In this document: positions 327 through 51,952 of the stretch, one piece after another
How the letters are laid out: each line of letters starts with the position of its first letter
Numbering within the stretch: the first letter of the stretch is position 1
Made by a program: the position numbers and the translations under genes
Assembly (NCBI GenBank): GCA_002327925.1
Contig: DCVA01000043.1
Coordinates: 5,948 to 69,947 of the forward strand
Length of the DNA stretch: 64,000 bases
Reading direction: 5' to 3'
Origin: Anaerolineales bacterium UBA2200
GTDB taxonomy: Bacteria; Chloroflexota; Anaerolineae; UBA2200
Notes under the pieces: model-generated
Databases searched by the model: none
Seen by the model: the letters and a program-made list of their open reading frames with translations, nothing else
What the model was told of the DNA's origin: nothing

Positions 327-1243
327 GTCCATGGGTTCGTCCGCCTCGAGTAGGGGTGGCTCTAAGCGGCGGTGGGTCACGGGGGCTCGCCCACATAGGC
401 GTCTTGAAAATGCTCGAGCGGGACGGTATCCCCGTGCACTTTCTGGCTGGTACCAGCATGGGAGGTGTAATCGCTGCAGGCTATGCCGCAGGATTGGGAG
501 TGGCCTACCTGGAAGAAGAGGCTCTGCGCATGGGCAAGTTGCGGAACCTAGCCAACCTGATCGACCGCTCTCTTCCCGGTCAGGGCCTGATGGGGGGGCA
601 GCGCATTCGGGAGTATTTCGCTCGTGAGTTGGGTGAAATCGCTTTTGCAGAACTGCGCATTCCTCTAGCTCTGGTTGCCGTCGACATTGTCCGCGGAGAA
701 GAAGTGGTGTTGAGGGACGGTTCCGTTGCGGATGCAGGGCGAGCAACCATCTCACTCCCCGGGGTATTCGCGCCCTTTCGCATGAAGGGACGCCTTCTGG
801 TTGACGGCGGTGTGCTCAATAACCTACCCGTGGATGTCGTGCGAGGCATGGGCGCGGATGTGGTGATCGCCGTGGATGTTTCCACTCGACCAGAGGGCTG
901 GCCGCAACTGACAAGAATGGAGAAACGACGGCTGTCACACATACAGGTTGGGTTGATGGTAGAGACTCTACAGCGAACGGTGGGTATCATGGGACGCCAG
1001 ATTGCGGCCCAGAAATTGCTGCTGGCACGGCCCGAGGTGTTAATCAGACCAGCGTTGGACAACGACATCAATCTGGTGTCCGGTTTCGCCAAAACGGGAA
1101 GCTGCATCGCTGCCGGAGAGAGCGCGACCATCTCAGCCCTTCCTGCGATCCGGCGGGCGTTGCGTACCCGCCCAGGCTTCCTTCACCCTCAGTTCTTGCG
1201 GCGACAGGCTCAGACATGCTCTGTTCAATTGCCAGAGAATTGA
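323..1243 (+). CDS. Patatin-like phospholipase (RssA/NTE family)
   Basis: Glycine-rich LSGGGSRGLAH, nucleophile elbow GTSMG and DGG catalytic motif. Confidence 0.92.
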   Translation: MSPWVRPPRVGVALSGGGSRGLAHIGVLKMLERDGIPVHFLAGTSMGGVIAAGYAAGLGVAYLEEEALRMGKLRNLANLIDRSLPGQGLMGGQRIREYFARELGEIAFAELRIPLALVAVDIVRGEEVVLRDGSVADAGRATISLPGVFAPFRMKGRLLVDGGVLNNLPVDVVRGMGADVVIAVDVSTRPEGWPQLTRMEKRRLSHIQVGLMVETLQRTVGIMGRQIAAQKLLLARPEVLIRPALDNDINLVSGFAKTGSCIAAGESATISALPAIRRALRTRPGFLHPQFLRRQAQTCSVQLPEN

Positions 1244-1497
1244 TCTCCCTGTACCTGGATCGTGAACTGCAGCCAGCACAGGCGACCGACCTGAGGAAGC
1301 ACGTGTACACCTGCACGGCTTGCCAGCACTACCAGGAGGCCATGGAGCACGCCGCGATGCTCCTCGCAGAGCCTCCTCTGGCTGTTCCGCCGGCCGACTT
1401 TGACCAGAGTCATGAGGCGCATCCACGACGAAAAGAGTATGGTTGGCAAGCGAGGGGAGGGCGTTCTCCCGAGAGAGAGCAGTCATGTGAGACATAG
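1216..1497 (+). CDS. zf-HC2 (ZAS-type anti-sigma zinc-finger) small protein, probably frameshifted near 1405
   Basis: C-x..LSLYLD.EL..H-x3-C-x2-C pattern (HVYTCTAC). After PPADF, a shifted frame reads TRVMRRI, which is typical of this family. Confidence 0.65.
   Translation: MLCSIARELISLYLDRELQPAQATDLRKHVYTCTACQHYQEAMEHAAMLLAEPPLAVPPADFDQSHEAHPRRKEYGWQARGGRSPEREQSCET
1462..1488 (+). repeat. 27-nt direct repeat, copy 1 (CGTTCTCCCGAGAGAGAGCAGTCATGT)
   Basis: 26/27 identical to 2906-2932, with weaker similarity extending into both flanks. Confidence 0.85.
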
Positions 1498-1553
1498 GTG
1501 TTCAGCCAGGCTGGCTCAGTTGTGGTGATGACCACCGATAGAGTAGCGATCGT

Positions 1554-2798
1554 ATGAAGAGAATCCTGATTCTGATGAGCGATACCGGTGGCGGGCACCG
1601 TGCAAGTGCCGATGCCCTGCGTGACGCTTTCAACGAACGATACGCGACGCAGTTGCACGTGGACATGGTAGACCTATGGCTGGATCACACGCCGCCGCCC
1701 TTGAATCGCGCCCCCATGGGCTATCGCTTCCTGGTGGACGACTTGCCCTGGCTCTACAAGTTCATCTATGCGGTGGGCGAGAATCCCCAGACCACGGAGC
1801 CCCTCCTAGCAACTGCATCGCGATTGCTCAGCAGGCCTATCAGTCGCGTCATCCGTCAATACAGCCCGGATCTGATCCTCTCGGTTCACCCGCTGATGCA
1901 GTGCATCCCGTGGCGCGTTCTAAAGCGGATGAAGCGTGACATTCCTTTCGTGACAGTTGTGACGGACTTGATCAACGTCCACCCGGTCTGGTACGACCGG
2001 AATGTCACGCTGTGCTTTGTTCCCAGCCAGGCGGCGTACAACCTGGCGCTCAAGGCAGGGCTACAGCCGGAGCAGTTGCGGCTACACGGGTTGCCAATCC
2101 GCCCGGCCTTTGGCAGGCCGCAGCGCCCCAAGGCAGAGATCAGACGGGAGCTGGGCATGCTTCCGGACGCGCCGGCGGTGCTCATCGTCAGCGGCGGCGA
2201 GGGCATGGGGAGAATTGGCGAGGTAGCACAGGCAGTGGACCAGCGTCTGGCCGTTGATGGGCAAGGACGCGGCAAGCCGGCCGGACAACAGGTCGTCGTA
2301 TGCGGCCGCAACCAGAGGCTGGAGGAGGACCTGCGAGCCTGGCCGTGGTCGATTCCGACCCTTGTCAAGGGCTACGTGAACAACATCTGGGACTGGATGG
2401 CGGCCTGTGATTGCGTTATCAGCAAGGCGGGCCCCGGCACTATTGCAGAGGCCCTGGCCCTGGGCCTGCCTGTCCTGGTCGTCGGGTACATACCTGGACA
2501 GGAGACCGCCAACGTCCTCTACGTCCTGAAGAATGGAGTAGGTGTCTACAACGACGACCCGCGACAAGTTGCCGAGATCATCAGCGGTTGGTTCGGTCCA
2601 GAACGTGACGTGATGGCTCAATTTGCGGAAAGGGCCAGGCATCTAGGTAGGTCAAACGCCACGTCCCAGATTGTGGATGACATTGCAGCGCTACTGCAGC
2701 AACAGGGGGATGCTCCCCGATGCTTCAGCGGACAAAACAGGCGGCGGCGCGCATCTGTTCATCCTGGTGCAGAAGCCGGAAGGTGGCAGAGCTCTTGA
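1554..2798 (+). CDS. GT28 glycosyltransferase, monogalactosyl/glucosyl-diacylglycerol synthase-like (MGD/UgtP family)
   Basis: N-terminal ILILMSDTGGGHRASA, plus VVTDL..H..W, SGGGEGMG and SKAGPGTIAEAL..GLP...PGQE.AN. Confidence 0.9.
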   Translation: MKRILILMSDTGGGHRASADALRDAFNERYATQLHVDMVDLWLDHTPPPLNRAPMGYRFLVDDLPWLYKFIYAVGENPQTTEPLLATASRLLSRPISRVIRQYSPDLILSVHPLMQCIPWRVLKRMKRDIPFVTVVTDLINVHPVWYDRNVTLCFVPSQAAYNLALKAGLQPEQLRLHGLPIRPAFGRPQRPKAEIRRELGMLPDAPAVLIVSGGEGMGRIGEVAQAVDQRLAVDGQGRGKPAGQQVVVCGRNQRLEEDLRAWPWSIPTLVKGYVNNIWDWMAACDCVISKAGPGTIAEALALGLPVLVVGYIPGQETANVLYVLKNGVGVYNDDPRQVAEIISGWFGPERDVMAQFAERARHLGRSNATSQIVDDIAALLQQQGDAPRCFSGQNRRRRASVHPGAEAGRWQSS

Positions 2799-2905
2799 GA
2801 TGGCTCGAGCAGATCACCGCAGTGGACGTGCAATCCGCGTGCAGGGAGGACCGAGTCACGAGACCCATCCGGGGCAAGAGCAGTACGGCCAGCGGGCGAG
2901 TGGTT

Positions 2906-2932
2906 CGTTCTCCCGAGACAGAGCAGTCATGT
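2906..2932 (+). repeat. 27-nt direct repeat, copy 2 (CGTTCTCCCGAGACAGAGCAGTCATGT), containing the ATG of the ABC1 gene
   Basis: 26/27 identical to 1462-1488. The ATG at 2929 lies inside it. Confidence 0.85.
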
Positions 2933-4599
2933 ACGGGATAGGGCGAGCGCGAAGGCATCTGCGGCGCTACCGCGACATCGTGGCTATCCTGGCCAAACAC
3001 GGGCTGGGTGCCCTGGTAGACCAGTTGAGCCTGGCGGCTTATCTAAGACTGCCAAAGCGGGCGTCACAACCAGAAGTGGCGGAACAGGAGAGGCTTACTA
3101 TCCCTCAGCGGCTGCGGATGGCTGTGGAGGAATTGGGGCCGACGTTCATCAAGTTTGCGCAGATTCTGAGCACACGACCAGACCTGATCCCCCCGGCCTA
3201 TCTGACGGAGTTAATCCGGCTGCAAGATACGGTACCACCAGCGCCATGGGAGCTGGTCAAGGCAAGGATTGAGGATGAACTTGGCCCTCTGGATCAGGTA
3301 TTTGCTTCCTTTGAAACCCAGCCTGTGGCGGCGGCCTCGCTAGGGCAGGTGTATTCGGCACGCCTGCAAAGCGGTGAAGAGGTAGTAGTCAAGGTTAGAC
3401 GGCCCGGGATCGAAGAGGTCGTTGATGTGGATCTGGAAATTCTACGCGACCTGGCGCAATGGGCGGCAAAGCATACTCCTCTGAGCGAGTTCTATGAACT
3501 GCCTGAGATTATCGAGGATTTCGCACACACGTTACGTAATGAGATGGACTACCTCTCCGAGGGCCAGAATGCTGATCGCTTCCGTCGGAACTTTGTCAAC
3601 GAAACTGCTCTATACGTGCCGAGAGTCTATTGGGACCATACAACGGAAAAGGTTCTGACTCTAGAGCGCATCAGCGGTATCAAAATCAATGACATCGTAG
3701 CCCTTGACGCGGCCAGGATTGACCGCCATCAGGTTGCGTTGAACAGTGCGCGCATTATCATCAAATCGATGCTGGAAGATGGGTTCTTCCATGCCGATCC
3801 CCATCCCGGCAACTTTTTCGTTATGGACAATGCCGTCATTGGGGCAATGGATTTCGGGATGGTGGGCTCCCTCAGCCCATGGGATAGGGAGCACCTGATT
3901 CGTCTCTACCTTGCGGCTGTGCAACTGGATGCGAGGGAGATTGTGGATGAGCTGATCTATGTAGGGGCAGCGCCGCCGCACATAGGTCGTGCGGGGATAG
4001 AGCGCGAGATGCAGAGGCTGTTGGTCAAGTACTACGGACGGTCATTGAAGGAGATCCAGGCGCGCCAGCTGGTGCATGAAGTGACTCCAATTGCCTTCCA
4101 GTACCATCTGCACCTTCCCAGTCAATGGTGGCTTCTGGGCAAGACGCTGGGCATGATGGAGGGGTTGGGGCTGCAATTGGATCCCGATTTTGACATCTTT
4201 GAGGTCAGCCAGCCATACGTGCGTAAGCTCCTCTGGCAGATGGTCTCCCCAAGAAAGTGGGCAGGGAAGATGGCACGGGGTATGCTGGATTGGAGTGACC
4301 TGTGGGCCGACTTGCCGCAACGTGGCTCTCGCCTGCTTGACCAGGTAGAGAAAGGCGAGTTGCAGTTCATGTTGAACCCCAGGGAATTGGACAAGATTCT
4401 AAATCACCTGGACCGGCGGTCTAATCGTGTGACGGTCAGCGTACTGGTAGCTGCGCTCATCATCAGCCTGGGCCTGCTGATAGCCGCCTCTGCGCCCGGT
4501 GAAGCCTGGGGTTCCAGGTTGAGCGTTGTCGGATTGGCGGTAGCTGCTGCACTCTGCCTGTGGTTGCTTCTGTCCATCCTGCGCTCCAATGGGCATTGA
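2929..4599 (+). CDS. ABC1/AarF/UbiB atypical kinase family protein with C-terminal TM helices (start could be 2800)
   Basis: EELGPTFIKFAQILSTRPDL, AAASLGQVY, VVVKVRRPG, GFFHADPHPGN and MDFGMVG. Confidence 0.93.
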   Translation: MYGIGRARRHLRRYRDIVAILAKHGLGALVDQLSLAAYLRLPKRASQPEVAEQERLTIPQRLRMAVEELGPTFIKFAQILSTRPDLIPPAYLTELIRLQDTVPPAPWELVKARIEDELGPLDQVFASFETQPVAAASLGQVYSARLQSGEEVVVKVRRPGIEEVVDVDLEILRDLAQWAAKHTPLSEFYELPEIIEDFAHTLRNEMDYLSEGQNADRFRRNFVNETALYVPRVYWDHTTEKVLTLERISGIKINDIVALDAARIDRHQVALNSARIIIKSMLEDGFFHADPHPGNFFVMDNAVIGAMDFGMVGSLSPWDREHLIRLYLAAVQLDAREIVDELIYVGAAPPHIGRAGIEREMQRLLVKYYGRSLKEIQARQLVHEVTPIAFQYHLHLPSQWWLLGKTLGMMEGLGLQLDPDFDIFEVSQPYVRKLLWQMVSPRKWAGKMARGMLDWSDLWADLPQRGSRLLDQVEKGELQFMLNPRELDKILNHLDRRSNRVTVSVLVAALIISLGLLIAASAPGEAWGSRLSVVGLAVAAALCLWLLLSILRSNGH

Positions 4600-45786: not shown

Positions 45787-46875
45787 ATGAAAGAACGTGA
45801 ACTCGAACGGCATGCACCGAGCTTTGCACGAATCCTGGTTGTGGGCGTCGGTGGAGGCGGCGGGAACGCAGTCAATCGCATGATCGACGCGGGATTGAGA
45901 GGCGTCGAGTTTGTGGCCATCAATACGGATGGCCAGTCGCTCCTGCTTTCAAAGGCGCCAACACGTCTGCGGATCGGCGACAAGCTGACCAAGGGTCTCG
46001 GCTCTGGTGGCAATCCGGCCGTCGGCGCCAAGGCGGCCGAAGAGTCGCACGAGGAACTGCGACAGGTCCTCGACGGCGCCGACATGGTCTTTGTCACAGC
46101 TGGAATGGGCGGGGGCACTGGCACGGGGGCCAGCCCGGTTATTGCCGGACTCGCGAAGGAAGCCGGTGCATTGACCGTGGGCGTGGTGACTCGGCCGTTT
46201 AGCTTCGAGGGCATGCGCAGAGCCAAGGCTGCCGATGACGGGATCGTACAACTCAAAGAGAAAGCCCACACCGTTATCGTCGTGCCGAATGATCGGCTGC
46301 TGCAGATCGTAGACAAGAAGGCGTCCATCGAGCAGGCATTCCGGGCTGCTGACGATGTGCTGCGCCAGGGCGTTCAGGGGGTCTCCGAGGTCATCACCGA
46401 GCCGGGTCTTATCAATGTGGACTTTGCCGATGTGCGCAACGTGATGTCCGAGGGCGGCTCGGCGCTGATGGGCATCGGCAGGGCCAGTGGTGAGAATCGG
46501 GCTGGTGAGGCCGCCAAACAGGCGATTTCGAGCCCGTTGCTGGATGTGACAATTGATGGGGCCAGAGGAGTGCTCTTCAACATCTGTGGCGGGCAGAGCC
46601 TCACCCTCCACGAAGCCAACGAAGCGGCTGAGATTATCCGCGAGCGGGCAGATGCCGACGCCAACATCCGTTTCGGCGCAGTCCTCAATGAGGAGATGGG
46701 CGACGAGGTCCAGATCACGGTCATTGCTACCGGCTTTAACGCCGACGGGCGAATACAGAGCAGACCGTTTGTGGTCAGTCCGCGCAAGACGCTGGACTTT
46801 CCCGTTCGCTCCTTTGAGGGAGAGGATCTGGATATTCCATCGTTCCTGAGGCGTAAACAGCGTCCACCGCAATAA
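45787..46875 (+). CDS. ftsZ: Cell division protein FtsZ
   Basis: [32 protein letters not shown] and the C-terminal DLDIPSFLR. Confidence 0.98.
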
Positions 46876-46915
46876 ACGTCGGGGCTGCGAATCTGGGTCT
46901 GTGTATGAAGACATG

Positions 46916-46949
46916 AGAGGCCAGCCTCCGGCGCAGGGGACTGGCCTCT
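46916..46949 (+). terminator. Probable terminator after ftsZ
   Basis: AGAGGCCAG/CTGGCCTCT stem with a weak downstream T-tract. Confidence 0.5.
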
Positions 46950-47003
46950 GGCCGTTTTGACGGAACGAAGCTTAAAATTAGGCCCGATTTAACAGACCTA
47001 GCC

Positions 47004-47032
47004 TTGTCACGGTCAGTGATGTATGCTATACT
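47004..47032 (+). promoter_or_regulatory. nrdR-nrdD promoter TTGTCA-17-TATACT (extended -10)
   Basis: Hexamers with TG-n before -10. Confidence 0.7.
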
Positions 47033-47039
47033 TGCTCTG

Positions 47040-47087
47040 CTACTACGGGTAGCCCCTCCTCGATCCAGGAGGTACTAGATACAGTGG
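47040..47087. promoter_or_regulatory. Tandem NrdR boxes (47040-47055 and 47072-47087)
   Basis: Cores CTA-cggg-TAG and CTA-gata-CAG resemble the CWA-N4-TWG core of the NrdR box and are 32 bp apart, just downstream of the promoter. Confidence 0.55.
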
Positions 47088-47277
47088 TCGACCAGAGTTG
47101 GTGTCGAGTGACGCCGCGCGGCTGCATCGGACCGCTCACCACTGTCGCTCACTGGGCACTAGAGCCCAACCTGTCTGGCTACCCGCAACTCCCATGGCTG
47201 CGGAATCCGCTCAAGGACGTACTGTCCCATTGCGGTGGCGCAGGCGTCGCCCTAGTTCGCCGCATGGAGGAGAGCTG

Positions 47278-47766
47278 ATGCACTGTCCCTACTGCCAGGA
47301 AGGAGACTCGCACGTAATCGATACTCGCACCGTCGGCGACAGCATCCGGCGACGTCGCGAGTGTCCACGGTGTGGGCAACGCTTCACCACCTACGAACGA
47401 TTGGCGCCGGTCAGCCTTTTCGTGGCGAAACGGGATGGCCGACGTGAGCCTTTCGATCGCGAAAAGCTGTATGCCGGGATCTACCATGCCTGCGCCAAGC
47501 GACCGATTTCCGATGACCAGATACAGACTGTTGTTGGCCATGTGGAAAATGACCTCTACGCCCTCGGCAAGGCCGAGGTGGAGAGTCAGGTGATCGGCCA
47601 GATGGTCATGCAGGAGTTGCGCGGCCTGGACGATGTCGCTTATGTGCGTTTTGCCTCTGTGTACAAGTCCTTCAAAGACATCAATGGTCTTGTTGAAGAG
47701 ATCAAAAAGTTCAAGCGCTGGAAGACGGGTGATCCGCAGGAGGAGCCTGTGGAGGCCGATCACTAG
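47278..47766 (+). CDS. nrdR: Transcriptional repressor NrdR
   Basis: MHCPYC...VIDTR, RRRRECPRCGQRFTTYE, an ATP cone and VAYVRFASVY. Confidence 0.97.
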   Translation: MHCPYCQEGDSHVIDTRTVGDSIRRRRECPRCGQRFTTYERLAPVSLFVAKRDGRREPFDREKLYAGIYHACAKRPISDDQIQTVVGHVENDLYALGKAEVESQVIGQMVMQELRGLDDVAYVRFASVYKSFKDINGLVEEIKKFKRWKTGDPQEEPVEADH

Positions 47767-47785
47767 GTTCTGGGAGAGGCTAGCT

Positions 47786-49855
47786 ATGGACGCTCTTAAC
47801 ACGGCCCAGCAGCAGAAACTGCGGACAGCGGTCGCCATCGCTTCTGTTCAGAAGCGAGATGGTCGAGTTGTGGCGTTCGACCAGAAGCGAATCGATGCAG
47901 CCATTTTGAGAGCCTTTGTAGCGGTCGGCCTGGGCGAGCCGGCCGACCGAGCTCACGCGCTTTCGGAGCGAGTGGTGGACCTGCTCGTGCAGCGTTACGG
48001 CGCGCAGGGCTGTGCCCTGGTGGAGCAGATCCAGGACGCGGTGGAAGAGGTGCTGATTCGCGCAGGCGAGGTGAAGGTCGCCAAGGCCTATATCCTCTAC
48101 CGGGCTCAACGCTCCGAGGTGCGCGACACGACCAGGCTCATGCTGGACGGGATGAAGCTGGTCGACGACTATATCGACAGGGCTGATTGGCGTGTCAGCG
48201 AGAACGCTAACATGAACTACTCGCTGCAGGGCCTGAACTTTTACGTCGCCTCGAGCATCGCGGCCAAGTACTGGCTCAACAAGATCTACCCGGCTGAGGT
48301 GTGCCTGGCACACCAAGAGGGAGATTTTCATATTCACGACCTGGGCATGCTGGCGACCTACTGCTGCGGCTGGGATCTACGTGACTTGCTGGTGCGCGGC
48401 TTTGGTGGAGTGCGGGCCAAGCTCGAGAGCAGGCCGCCTCGACACCTGCGCACGGCTCTGGGACAGCTCGTCAACTTTTTCTACACCGTTCAGGGCGAGT
48501 CTGCAGGGGCGCAGGCCATCTCCAACTTTGACACGCTCCTGGCGCCTTTCGTCCGGTACGATGGCCTAAACTACGCGGGCGTGAAGCAGGCGTTGCAGGA
48601 GTTCGTCTTTAACATCAATGTGCCAACGCGGGTAGGCTTTCAGACGCCGTTTACCAACGTTACCATGGACCTGACGCCGCCCTCTACTCTGGCCGAGGAA
48701 GGGGTCATCGCCGGCGGAAAGCTCCAGCAAGACACGTATGGCGACTTTCAGCCGGAGATGGATCTCATAAACCGGGCGTTCGCCGAGGTGTTGTTGGAGG
48801 GTGATGCTCGCGGCCGGGTGTTTACCTTCCCCATTCCCACCTACAATGTCACCAGCGACTTTGACTGGGATAACCCGGTTCTGGAGCCTCTCTGGAGAGT
48901 GACCGCCAAGTATGGCATCCCCTATTTCGCCAACTACATTAATAGCGACCTGCGCCCCGAGGATGCACGTTCCATGTGCTGCCGATTACGACTGGACAAT
49001 CGAGAGCTTCGTAAGCGAGGTGGCGGACTGTTTGGCGCCAACCCGCTCACTGGCAGCATAGGGGTAGTTACCATCAATCTGCCACGTGTGGGGTTCCGCG
49101 CCACGAGTGAGGATGACTACTATTTCCGCCTGAGCCAGACCATGGACGTGGCCAGGACGTCCCTCGAGATCAAGCGCAAGGTCCTCGAACGCCACACGGA
49201 GGAGGGGCTGTACCCTTACAGCCGCCACTATCTCCGTTCAGTCTACGAGTGCTTTGGCTCGCACTGGGCCAACCATTTCTCGACCATCGGCATTGTTGGG
49301 ATGAACGAGTGCTGCGAGAACTTTCTCGGAGTTGGCATAGCTCACCCGCAGGGCAAGGATTTTGCCGGTGCGGTCCTGCAGTTCATGCGACGCAAGCTGC
49401 AGGACTATCAGGATGAGACAGGCCATCTCTACAATCTGGAAGCGACTCCGGCGGAGAGCGCCAACTATCGCCTGGCGAAGGCGGATCGGAAGCAGTACCC
49501 GGGAATCGCGACTGCAGGGACCCCCGACACGCCATACTACACCAATTCCACGCACCTTCCAGTGGGCTGCACGGACGACCTGTTTGCTGCGCTTGAACAT
49601 CAGGATGAACTGCAGACCCTCTACACGGGAGGGACTGTATTTCACGCCTTCTTGGGTGAGCAGGTTGACGACTGGAGGCAGGCACGCCTGCTCGTTCGGC
49701 GCATATCAGAGCGCTTCCATCTGCCCTACTTTACGCTGACGCCGACGTTCAGCATCTGCCCGGTTCATGGTTACCTGAATGGTCGGCACAGCTATTGCCC
49801 CTACGATCACACGCCCGAGGAGTTGGCGCGTTTTGGCTCGGCTGCCTCGGCATAA
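47786..49855 (+). CDS. nrdD: Class III anaerobic ribonucleoside-triphosphate reductase, catalytic part lacking the glycyl-radical C-terminus
   Basis: N-terminal ATP cone (VQKRDGRVV.FD), ENAN, GESAGAQA, finger loop SMCCRL, YNLEATPAES and YTGGTVFH. It ends after the metal site CPVH...CPYDH with no RxxGY motif. Confidence 0.93.
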   Translation: MDALNTAQQQKLRTAVAIASVQKRDGRVVAFDQKRIDAAILRAFVAVGLGEPADRAHALSERVVDLLVQRYGAQGCALVEQIQDAVEEVLIRAGEVKVAKAYILYRAQRSEVRDTTRLMLDGMKLVDDYIDRADWRVSENANMNYSLQGLNFYVASSIAAKYWLNKIYPAEVCLAHQEGDFHIHDLGMLATYCCGWDLRDLLVRGFGGVRAKLESRPPRHLRTALGQLVNFFYTVQGESAGAQAISNFDTLLAPFVRYDGLNYAGVKQALQEFVFNINVPTRVGFQTPFTNVTMDLTPPSTLAEEGVIAGGKLQQDTYGDFQPEMDLINRAFAEVLLEGDARGRVFTFPIPTYNVTSDFDWDNPVLEPLWRVTAKYGIPYFANYINSDLRPEDARSMCCRLRLDNRELRKRGGGLFGANPLTGSIGVVTINLPRVGFRATSEDDYYFRLSQTMDVARTSLEIKRKVLERHTEEGLYPYSRHYLRSVYECFGSHWANHFSTIGIVGMNECCENFLGVGIAHPQGKDFAGAVLQFMRRKLQDYQDETGHLYNLEATPAESANYRLAKADRKQYPGIATAGTPDTPYYTNSTHLPVGCTDDLFAALEHQDELQTLYTGGTVFHAFLGEQVDDWRQARLLVRRISERFHLPYFTLTPTFSICPVHGYLNGRHSYCPYDHTPEELARFGSAASA

Positions 49856-49897
49856 GTGAATGCTCAGAAGCTTCTAGATTCGGAGGACGGTGCGAAC

Positions 49898-50101
49898 ATG
49901 ACAAGTGTCGACGAGAAGCAGGTGATCAGTGACGCCCAGGCGGGGCCGAGGGAAAAGAAGGTGGCGTGCGAGGTCTATTCGCGCATTGTTGGATACCTTC
50001 GCCCGGTAGCCGACTGGAACCGCGGCAAGCAGCAGGAGTTTTCGGAGCGCAAGACATACGGTGTCCCGCAGTCCGAGAGATCCGATACCTCCTCGAACTA
50101 G
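49898..50101 (+). CDS. Stand-alone NrdD C-terminal glycyl-radical domain (about 67 aa)
   Basis: CEVYSRIVGYLRPVADWNRGKQQEFSER is the NrdD glycyl-radical motif. It has its own GGAGG SD and is in frame with nrdD behind a TAA. Confidence 0.85.
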   Translation: MTSVDEKQVISDAQAGPREKKVACEVYSRIVGYLRPVADWNRGKQQEFSERKTYGVPQSERSDTSSN

Positions 50102-50169
50102 GATTGAGATTGCACTGAGAGCTAGGACACTCCGCACTCGGCTCCCGTGCGCAGAGGCGGCCGTGGTGG

Positions 50170-50994
50170 TTGATCCTAGCTTCCCCCGGTTCGTCCTGGC
50201 TGCGGATCCCTTATCCGCGCGGGGTTTCTGTGCTGTGTAAGAGCGTGTTGCGCACCTCGGTGATTGAGTTCCCCGGTCATATCGCGGATGTGGTGTTTGT
50301 CGGCGGATGCAACTTCCGCTGCCCGTACTGCTATAACCGTGATCTAGTGCTGAACCCCGGCCTGCTTCCGGACCTTCCGGCCGAGCTAGTCTTCGAGGAC
50401 GTCAAGGGACGCCGGTGCTTTGTGGATGGCATCGTGATTACAGGGGGGGAGCCCAGCCTGCAACCGGAGCTGGACGCCTTTCTGACCCGGGCGCGCGAAG
50501 CGAACTTGCTGACCAAGCTCGATACAAACGGCTACCGACCTGATGTGCTTCGGCGTTGCCTGGAAAAGCACCTGGTGAGCTACATTGCGATGGATGTCAA
50601 GACCAGCCTGCCGCGCTATCGGAGCGTTGCAGGCCTGGATGTGGATCACCGGCTTCTGCTGGAGTCCATCTCACTGATCCTGTCGTCGGGAGTCGAACAC
50701 GAGTTTCGGACCACGGTTGTGCCGGGGTTGGTCGAGCTGAGTGATGTCGAGGCCATCTCGCGGGAGATCCGCGGAGCACAGCAATACTACCTCCAGGCGT
50801 TTCGCCCATCTCCGACAGTAGGATGGGGCAACGAAGTGCCCGTTGGCTCCCCGGATCCGGAATTGATGCAGCAGATGGCGCGGGTAGCGTCACGGAACGT
50901 CCATCACGTCGGAGTTCGAGGCCTCGTACAGGGTGATGGAACGACTTCTCGGGAGGCGATCCGGATTGACAGTCAGGAGGCCCTGACCAGCTGA
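50170..50994 (+). CDS. nrdG: Anaerobic RNR activating enzyme (radical SAM); start uncertain
   Basis: GCNFRCPYCYN (CxxxCxxC), ITGGEPSL, KLDTNG and EFRTT. Confidence 0.92.
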   Translation: MILASPGSSWLRIPYPRGVSVLCKSVLRTSVIEFPGHIADVVFVGGCNFRCPYCYNRDLVLNPGLLPDLPAELVFEDVKGRRCFVDGIVITGGEPSLQPELDAFLTRAREANLLTKLDTNGYRPDVLRRCLEKHLVSYIAMDVKTSLPRYRSVAGLDVDHRLLLESISLILSSGVEHEFRTTVVPGLVELSDVEAISREIRGAQQYYLQAFRPSPTVGWGNEVPVGSPDPELMQQMARVASRNVHHVGVRGLVQGDGTTSREAIRIDSQEALTS

Positions 50995-51025
50995 CCATGG
51001 TGCAAGGCACTACAACGGAGGGAGC

Positions 51026-51952
51026 ATGAGAATGCGCATACGACGGGATGTTCAGCAAGTCATTCGCGAGGGCGGCGCCGCTGTGGCACTCGAATCGACT
51101 CTGATCACTCACGGGCTGCCATACCCAGATAATCTGCGCGTCGCCCAGCAGATGGAACAGGCGGTGCGCGACGAAGGTGCCGTTCCGGCGACTGTGGCTG
51201 TTCTGGCTGGAGTGCCCACGATTGGGATTGACAGCGTTCAGCTGGAGTACCTTGCCCAGGCCAAAAACGTGCGCAAGTGCAGCAGAAGGGACCTGCCCAT
51301 CGTGCTGGCGACCCAGTCTGATGGCGCTACGACGATCTGCGGCACGCTGATCCTGGCACACCTGGCTGGAGTCCGTGTGTTTGCCACGGGTGGTCTGGGC
51401 GGAGTTCACCGTGGCAAGGTGTTCGACGTCTCGGCAGACCTCGACGAACTGGCCCGCACGCCAATGATTGTGGTCTGTTCGGGGCCCAAGGCGCTGCTGG
51501 ACCAGGAGGCGACTCGCGAAAGGCTTGAGACGCTGGGCGTACCCATCCTCGGGTACGGCACGGACCGTGTTCCCGCCTTCTACTCGCGTGAGAGCGACCT
51601 GGCGGTGGACCTGCGGGTGGAGAGCCCGGATGAGGTCGCCGGCGTTGCCATGGCGCGCGACAAGCTTGGCCTGATGGCTGCGGTCGTGGTCGGCGTTCCA
51701 GTTCCTGTCGCCGACGAACTCCCTCGTGCACAGGCCGAAGAGGCGATTCGCCTGGCCCTGCATATGGCCGAGGAGCAGGCGATTCGCGGTGAGGCGGTCA
51801 CACCCTTCTTGCTCCCTCGCATTACCGAGCTCACCGAAGGGCGCAGTCTTGTTGCCAACCGCAGTCTGCTGATCAACAACGCGCGGGTGGCAGCGCGTGT
51901 GGCACATTCATTGGCGCTGGCGAGGCAGAGGGAGCGCAGGCCGACCATTTAG
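51026..51952 (+). CDS. psuG: Pseudouridine-5'-phosphate glycosidase family (IndA-like)
   Basis: VALESTLITHGLPYP, GATTI, FATGGLGGVHRG, DVSADLDEL, V.SGPKALLD, VTPFLL and N..L..NNA. Confidence 0.93.
   Translation: MRMRIRRDVQQVIREGGAAVALESTLITHGLPYPDNLRVAQQMEQAVRDEGAVPATVAVLAGVPTIGIDSVQLEYLAQAKNVRKCSRRDLPIVLATQSDGATTICGTLILAHLAGVRVFATGGLGGVHRGKVFDVSADLDELARTPMIVVCSGPKALLDQEATRERLETLGVPILGYGTDRVPAFYSRESDLAVDLRVESPDEVAGVAMARDKLGLMAAVVVGVPVPVADELPRAQAEEAIRLALHMAEEQAIRGEAVTPFLLPRITELTEGRSLVANRSLLINNARVAARVAHSLALARQRERRPTI

Follow-up and report, generated by a model that had tools for sequence, protein, structure and literature searches.

Whether an anaerobic ribonucleotide reductase (RNR) can carry its radical glycine on a protein of its own is the question raised by a gene pair from Anaerolineales bacterium UBA2200. 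The pair lies in the window, the stretch of 64,000 nucleotides analysed here (GenBank assembly GCA_002327925.1, contig DCVA01000043.1, positions 5,948 to 69,947 of the forward strand). A first-pass annotation of this DNA had noticed that nrdD, the gene of the class III enzyme, stops with TAA after the metal site, and that the RIVGYL motif is found on a separate open reading frame (ORF) of about 67 codons, in the same frame and with its own GGAGG Shine-Dalgarno sequence. The ORF coordinates and the sequence bear out each of these observations; only the start implied for the small gene needs correction, the likely ATG lying one base earlier. The two genes very probably encode an obligate two-chain class III (anaerobic, glycyl-radical) RNR of the NrdDh/MCCR type. 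This reading draws on gene architecture, conservation, translation signals, selection and fold compatibility, and on the fact that no other RNR was found.

Between them the two ORFs account for one whole NrdD profile, exactly once, interrupted by a stop codon and by about 47 residues that are extra to it. The large ORF (689 aa) matched the NCBIfam model NF006126 from position 3 to 651 of 684 with 1022 bits (cut-off 548), TIGR02487 with 492 bits (cut-off 326) and PF13597 from position 1 to 525 of 562 (E 1e-176); PF03477 was also matched. Its features are the ATP-cone, the 10-stranded barrel, the finger-loop motif MCCR and a predicted Cys/His metal site. The finger-loop motif reads SMCCRLRLD, and M397, C398 and C399 are invariant in an alignment of 91 sequences. 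MCCR is known as the NrdDh4-type variant of the finger loop (PMC4493059). No glycine-radical loop (RVxGY) was found on the large chain, which ends at NF006126 position 651 of 684 with HTPEELARFG-SAASA followed by TAA. The small ORF covers NF006126 positions 649–682, that is, the last 34 or so positions of NrdD profiles.

The metal site stays on the large chain. Residues C658, H661 and C671 align with the C..H..CPxC site of T. maritima and canonical NrdD, and the fourth ligand is probably H675 (CPYDH), replacing the Cys of CPxC. Canonical relatives read FSIC-P-x-H-GY...C-P-x-C-x(3-5)-C-EVYSRIVGY and the T. maritima enzyme reads C..H...CPVC...VDEYMRIVGY; because the ligands come before the glycine loop in this order, all four ligand positions precede the break. 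The invariant Cys24 of the small protein was also considered as a universal metal-site ligand and was rejected, since T. maritima NrdD has Val at that place and the four ligand positions are on the large chain.

The small protein reads MTSVDEKQVISDAQAGPREKKVA-C24-EVYSRIVG32-YLRPVADWNRGKQQEFSERKTY..., in which Gly32 (codon 49991-49993) is predicted to be the radical glycine of the RVxGY motif. Its first 20 or so residues form a variable tail, followed by the core C24-EVYSRIVG32-YLRP..W..GK.QEF.ER and by a second variable tail at the C-terminus. Among 38 small homologues, the core CEVYSRIVGYLRP and the later K, E and R are invariant and the tails vary freely. A Pfam scan of the small ORF gave only PF13597 (NRDD), with no match to PF01228 (Gly_radical, the C-terminus of pyruvate formate-lyase, PFL), and no dedicated family for the small protein was found in Pfam, NCBIfam (June 2026) or PHROG. 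The small gene is a real gene whose core is under strong purifying selection. Over the 31 core codons in 12 genomes, the proportion of synonymous differences (pS) was 0.75, near saturation, that of non-synonymous differences (pN) was 0.09, and pN/pS was 0.12. Between the window genome (G000) and a genome of the same genus (G001) the core has undergone 17.5 synonymous and 2.5 non-synonymous changes.

The junction was compared across 12 related genomes of the same family and class, representing at least 10 genera. The first-pass annotation had pointed to close relatives as the place where a continuous NrdD might come to light; all 12 proved to be split. Their large ORFs end after CP..H..EL..(F/W/Y)G plus 3–6 variable residues, with TAA, TGA or TAG as the stop and spacers of 15–124 nt, and every small gene is preceded by a Shine-Dalgarno-like motif 5–12 nt ahead of its ATG. 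The small gene stands in frame 0 relative to nrdD in six genomes, in frame +1 in three and in frame +2 in three. The same-genus genome has two stop codons between the pieces. In G025 the small gene is found 5.8 kb from nrdD, directly upstream of nrdG, and the interval is filled by a gene for a metallo-beta-lactamase-fold protein, a deoxynucleoside kinase gene and two ORFs without assignment. No homing endonuclease, intein or ORF was found in the spacers (42 nt here, 15–124 nt in the relatives). The survey of homologues ending in CPYxH..EEL..FG that had been proposed gave the same picture: 110 of the 120 closest large-chain homologues end in ...CPxxH..EL..(F/W/Y)G and lack the glycine motif, and the other 10 are fused, reading ...CPYDHTPEELKAVAHEDSKVP-CEVYSRIVGY.... 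The break point after ..EL..(F/W/Y)G, tested as a trait of split RNRs, is conserved in both sets. The exact 67-aa protein was also recovered on contigs of five separate samples or runs (JGI 3300001580, SRR5323280, SRR943329, SRR943330 and SRR943331), and the 96 bases around the junction, TAA included, are identical across these five independent assemblies. A split conserved to this extent goes far beyond what chance would produce.

These comparisons bear directly on the simplest alternative, that the stop reflects an error in sequencing or assembly, or a nonsense mutation of recent date, and that nrdD is a decaying pseudogene. The two ORFs share a frame in the window genome, so one base change could have made the stop. 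An error of this kind is nevertheless hard to reconcile with a junction that is identical in five independent assemblies, with the two stops of the congener, with a small gene that is in another frame in 6 of the 12 genomes and 5.8 kb away in G025, with the strong purifying selection on the small gene and with the failure to find another RNR in the window genome and in 12 of 13 relatives; we give it next to no credence. Hardly better placed, and in our view very improbable, is the explanation that one fused protein is still made through stop-codon read-through, frameshifting or split-intein joining. The shared frame in G000, the existence of a fused relative with a long linker (L061, Brevinematia) and the capacity of relatives' nrdD to hold intein-sized inserts (G025) would all suit it. 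Read-through and frameshifting were rejected because frame and stop codon vary among the 12 genomes: three stop codons occur, sometimes two in a row, together with three frames and spacers of 15–124 nt, no conserved recoding signal is present, and every small gene has its own Shine-Dalgarno sequence and ATG. The first-pass annotation had held the unusual length of the linker against read-through; taken alone this is a weak argument, for the fused L061 has a similarly long linker. Joining by a split intein was rejected in turn, as the tails at the break (5–10 and about 20 residues) are variable and far too short for intein halves, and no Pfam intein or Hint domain is reported on either piece. 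The proposal of a natively two-piece RNR, as opposed to a nonsense mutation, has strong support: it is backed by cross-genus conservation in different frames, by the ribosome-binding site and ATG of the small gene, by purifying selection and by its apparent standing as the sole RNR.

The large insert of G025 deserves a description of its own. The nrdD large chain of this genome has 1145 aa (L106, G025:C111:59500-71500, ORF 609-4046), with an intein-sized insert of about 460 residues between the positions matching window residues 287 and 285. Pfam at E <= 0.001 reports no domain in the insert, and no dedicated Hint or endonuclease search was made. Further large-chain homologues of 1147–1151 aa are P0175 and P0202.

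Evidence that the two-chain enzyme is in use comes from a search for other reductases. The class I/II RNR catalytic domain (PF02867) had no match in the window genome, which is 88% complete, or in 12 of 13 other split-carrying genomes, some of them 95–100% complete; the same search found the domain in 12 of 14 control genomes. No second nrdD was found in the window genome, and its single nrdD is the one without the loop. The split enzyme is probably the working one, because no class I/II RNR was found in the window genome or in 12 of the 13 relatives, and it would probably be the only route to deoxynucleoside triphosphates unless salvage of deoxynucleosides is enough to sustain these organisms. 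Of the indirect arguments for activity of the two-chain enzyme, the failure to find another RNR is the strongest. Some genomes also contain ORFs of 454–536 aa whose N-terminal ATP-cone is 42–51% identical to that of NrdD (G012:C43, G027:C26, G034:C11, G018, G036, G015 and G039). Those of G012, G027 and G034 have no PF02867 match, so these three are not class I/II RNRs.

To examine the fold, the TAA was read as Q and the resulting read-through chain was modelled with AlphaFold2 from an alignment of 91 sequences, which comprised fused homologues and large chains only. The model has a mean predicted local distance difference test (pLDDT) score of 84.3 and a predicted template modelling score of 0.79. 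The linker (residues 688–720) is disordered in it, and the small-chain core (residues 721–760, pLDDT 81–88) forms a beta-hairpin with Gly736, equivalent to Gly32, at the turn, followed by a short helix. The top Foldseek matches of the model were the NrdD structures of S. thermophilus, P. copri, T. maritima and phage T4, with TM-scores of 0.72–0.76 normalised to the target, and the fold is that of a class III RNR. In P. copri, the zinc site, the glycine loop and the tail make up a "glycyl radical domain", which behaves as a mobile rigid body (PMC11226230). Since that domain includes the zinc site, the break described here falls inside it, with the zinc ribbon on one side and the glycine loop on the other. 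The first-pass annotation had spoken of a detached glycyl-radical domain; this holds for the glycine loop and the C-terminal tail, but the zinc-ribbon half stays on the large chain. A detached radical piece is physically plausible, because the C-terminal radical domain of the one-piece P. copri enzyme is itself a mobile rigid-body element.

If the two-chain reading is right, the 689-residue chain would supply the ATP-cone, the catalytic barrel, the cysteine finger loop and a Cys2His2-type metal ribbon, and the separately translated 67-residue protein would supply the beta-hairpin with radical Gly32, then a short helix and a tail. The small chain would dock non-covalently in the barrel, at the place taken by the C-terminal loop in one-piece NrdD. 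The adjacent NrdG2 activase would take hydrogen from Gly32, and the radical would pass to the finger-loop cysteine as in canonical NrdD, from where catalysis could be expected to proceed. Several observations weigh against this scheme. The presumed fourth metal ligand is a His and is shifted by one position from the second Cys of the canonical CPxC. The AlphaFold2 model supports a confident fold of the core, not the docking of the loop in the barrel, which we infer. The window genome is 88% complete, so a missed class II RNR is conceivable for that genome alone, and some relatives encode a deoxynucleoside kinase (G025), so that salvage could lessen dependence on the split enzyme.

By sequence and predicted fold the system matches class III RNRs of the NrdDh/MCCR kind (PMC4493059), with one defining exception: the glycine motif is off the catalytic polypeptide. 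The closest known system is canonical one-piece NrdD with NrdG (T. maritima 4COI/4U3E, N. bacilliformis, P. copri 8P23 and phage T4 1H78; RNRdb subclass NrdDh, MCCR variant). The two have in common the ATP-cone, the barrel, the double-cysteine MCCR finger loop, the predicted Cys/His ribbon, the R-I-V-G-Y motif and an adjacent activase of the NrdG2 type. They differ in that the chain is broken here between the metal ribbon and the glycine loop, with the radical glycine on a separate 67-residue protein, in that the second CPxC of the ribbon is CPYDH, and in the conserved HT.EEL..(F/W/Y)G tail of the large chain, which is absent from canonical enzymes. Catalytic subunits of RNR divided between two genes, whose products must assemble, are known from other classes. 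The class Ia NrdA of phage Aeh1 is split by a homing-endonuclease gene. The class II NrdJa/NrdJb of Pseudomonas aeruginosa is another split RNR catalytic subunit (cited in PMC9669993). As in those systems, the enzyme described here would be assembled from two gene products, and its genes are adjacent in the window; unlike them, it is a class III enzyme and its detached piece would bear a stable protein radical, and its 42-nt spacer, unlike the Aeh1 gene, holds no mobile element.

The first-pass annotation had likened the small protein to GrcA/YfiD. GrcA/YfiD of E. coli and Y06I of phage T4 are autonomous glycyl radical cofactors that serve as spare parts of PFL and are presumably activated by the activase of that enzyme (PMC13450708). 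The likeness is real in so far as all are small free-standing proteins with a disordered N-terminal tail and a glycine loop homologous to the C-terminus of a large enzyme. It fails on two counts: the homology here is to NrdD, not PFL, and the PFL served by GrcA has a glycine domain of its own that is replaced only after damage, whereas the large chain here has no loop. Because of this, the small protein, as the only glycine-bearing chain, would be a regular obligatory subunit and not a spare of the GrcA type.

A further possibility concerns what the separate chain is for. The first-pass annotation proposed a replaceable radical subunit that helps the cell survive exposure to oxygen. On this view the chain may act as a cartridge, in which oxygen destroys only the 7.5-kDa chain and a fresh small protein activated by NrdG re-arms the intact barrel, making recovery faster and cheaper. 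The radical glycine is where oxygen cleaves glycyl-radical enzymes, and GrcA/YfiD sets a precedent for PFL (PMC13450708). The small gene also stays beside nrdG even when it is away from nrdD (G025), and extra copies of it occur: two paralogues in G027 and, in G351, a free 69-aa copy alongside a fused NrdD. Such copies make sense only if the chain can act in trans. On the other side, only one copy is present in the window genome, where it is the sole glycine loop, and this makes the small chain a regular subunit in the first place. Fused and split forms also alternate within one clade, which near-neutral fission and fusion would explain equally well. A benefit of a replaceable subunit after oxygen exposure is plausible; as the explanation of the split we regard it as unlikely. 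The stricter version, in which NrdG charges the free chain of about 7 kDa off the barrel, the chain docks reversibly and is replaced after cleavage by oxygen, so that the 78-kDa barrel survives oxygen pulses, appears somewhat more doubtful still. If an exchangeable chain were nevertheless borne out, the unlinked copies of G027 and G351 would be the first true spare parts outside the formate lyases.

The extra copies can be described briefly. G351, from the same phylum, encodes an NrdD fused in a 749-aa frame and a free 69-aa NrdD-type glycine-loop protein reading MAEEKREQVCGEPCEVYSRVVGYLRPVQQWNKGKKAEY... (L107, G351:C9:77500-82500). The free copy (ORF 2291-2500, minus strand) adjoins a formate/nitrite transporter gene (PF01226) and is a candidate for a true spare part. 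The paralogues of G027 are one of 46 aa beside nrdD and one of 50 aa that is unlinked and lies among unrelated genes (L108 G027:C94 ORF 1650-1802; L010 G027:C158).

Standalone small chains are widespread. A word-indexed search limited to proteins of 37–117 aa gave 132 clusters of standalone homologues of 42–103 aa; those with names are called "hypothetical protein" or "anaerobic ribonucleoside-triphosphate reductase" and come from metagenome-assembled genomes (MAGs) of Anaerolineae and Chloroflexia. When 1.84 billion cluster representatives were searched with a profile and no filter, 4901 of them matched at E <= 1e-3. The best 150 of those clusters (50% identity) are all of 49–109 aa, and of 139 further sequences drawn from them, 132 begin with Met. 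Among GTDB species genomes, standalone small ORFs turned up in Chloroflexota, Caldisericum, Lentisphaerota/Victivallales, Aquificales, Thermodesulfobacteriota, Elusimicrobiota and Fermentibacterota. Within Chloroflexota few genomes carry a class III RNR (8 of 401 in an even sample of the phylum), and both split and fused forms are present there.

The evolution of the split was traced in a quick maximum-likelihood tree of 63 large chains, from which the columns after the TPTFS motif had been removed; it was made without bootstraps and allows coarse statements only. It contains a well-supported clade of 39 sequences, every one with the HT.EEL..G tail. The clade holds 25 split Chloroflexota, whose sister is a monophyletic group of six fused Chloroflexota, together with split Thermodesulfobacteriota, Aquificota and Fermentibacterota and one fused Brevinematia (L061). 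The linker of L061 is long and resembles a former spacer, now translated, joined to the tail of a small gene; L061 would then be a re-fusion. The Elusimicrobiota split falls within the canonical fused enzymes and its tail is different, and it therefore had an independent origin. As drawn, the tree needs at least three changes between the split and fused states. Standalone glycine-loop ORFs of 104–145 aa with an N-terminal CxxC segment (e.g. ...FKCDACYKKNPRLTNYRDCEVYSRIVGY) were also seen in MAGs of an unclassified bacterium and of Patescibacteria (L040 and L073). In these the detached piece seems to carry part of the zinc ribbon, with a break point that differs from that of the window.

To our knowledge, all characterised glycyl-radical enzymes bear the radical glycine on the catalytic polypeptide. 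According to a review of June 2026, formate lyases are the only enzymes for which small autonomous glycine-radical proteins are known, and the other families are left undetermined (PMC13450708). No published description of a split NrdD was found in the open-access literature, which is not proof of absence, and the arrangement is apparently undescribed. If a naturally occurring class III RNR does keep its glycine loop on a separate chain, a new subunit architecture would be added to those known for this ancient and essential enzyme. Such an RNR could also serve as a tool for the question of how an activase reaches a glycine buried in the barrel, as activation and docking would be separable on a substrate of 67 residues. 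Experiments are feasible because one carrier is in culture, Thermodesulfatator autotrophicus S606 (L094) of the Thermodesulfobacteriota. Annotation would gain as well: at present the small genes go under "hypothetical" or, wrongly, under the name of a full reductase, and the large genes give the appearance of truncation. For this reason RNR may be wrongly scored as broken when the metabolism of Chloroflexota, Thermodesulfobacteriota, Elusimicrobiota and others is reconstructed.

The surrounding genes follow the order nrdR-nrdD-small gene-nrdG, all on the + strand, with nrdG beginning 68 nt 3' of the small gene. The coordinates are collected in the table below. The start codon of nrdG is uncertain, and the one given is that taken by gene callers, a TTG. 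The four genes may form one operon driven from the candidate promoter upstream of nrdR, and no terminator-like sites were found between the cluster genes. Promoter-like sites are no more numerous here than in shuffled sequence, so the candidate is weak evidence. About 245 nt (47033-47277) separate this only promoter-like site from the start codon of nrdR, and a scan of positions 46800-51200 against Rfam gave nothing relevant and no known RNA family in that interval.

Features of the nrdR-nrdD-small gene-nrdG locus (positions in the window)
Feature	Position	Strand	Basis or remarks
Sigma-70-like promoter candidate	47004..47032	+	Consensus scan, 10/12 matches, TG extension; upstream of nrdR
nrdR, transcriptional repressor of RNR genes	47278..47766	+	TIGR00244 190 bits (cut-off 125); Pfam Zn_ribbon_NrdR, ATP-cone
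nrdD, large chain, 689 aa	47786..49855	+	ATG 47786, TAA 49853-49855
Codons of metal-site ligands (fourth probable)	C658 49757-59, H661 49766-68, C671 49796-98, H675 49808-10	+	C-terminal alignment
Intergenic spacer, 42 nt	49856..49897	+	GGAGGA Shine-Dalgarno 49882-49887, 10 nt ahead of ATG
Small radical-bearing chain (predicted), 67 aa	49898..50101	+	Likely start ATG 49898, stop TAG 50099-50101
nrdG, radical S-adenosylmethionine activase, NrdG2 type	50170..50994	+	TIGR02495 170 bits (cut-off 131); Pfam Radical_SAM, Fer4_12

Another variation at the C-terminus was seen among one-piece enzymes. The NrdD of a Spirochaetaceae MAG (L068:1898-4408, Pfam 562/562) has an extra glutaredoxin/thioredoxin-like domain after the glycine loop, and similar tails are present in L066, L070, L086, L090 and L097. 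Such tails fit the thioredoxin-dependent reduction reported for NrdDh enzymes.

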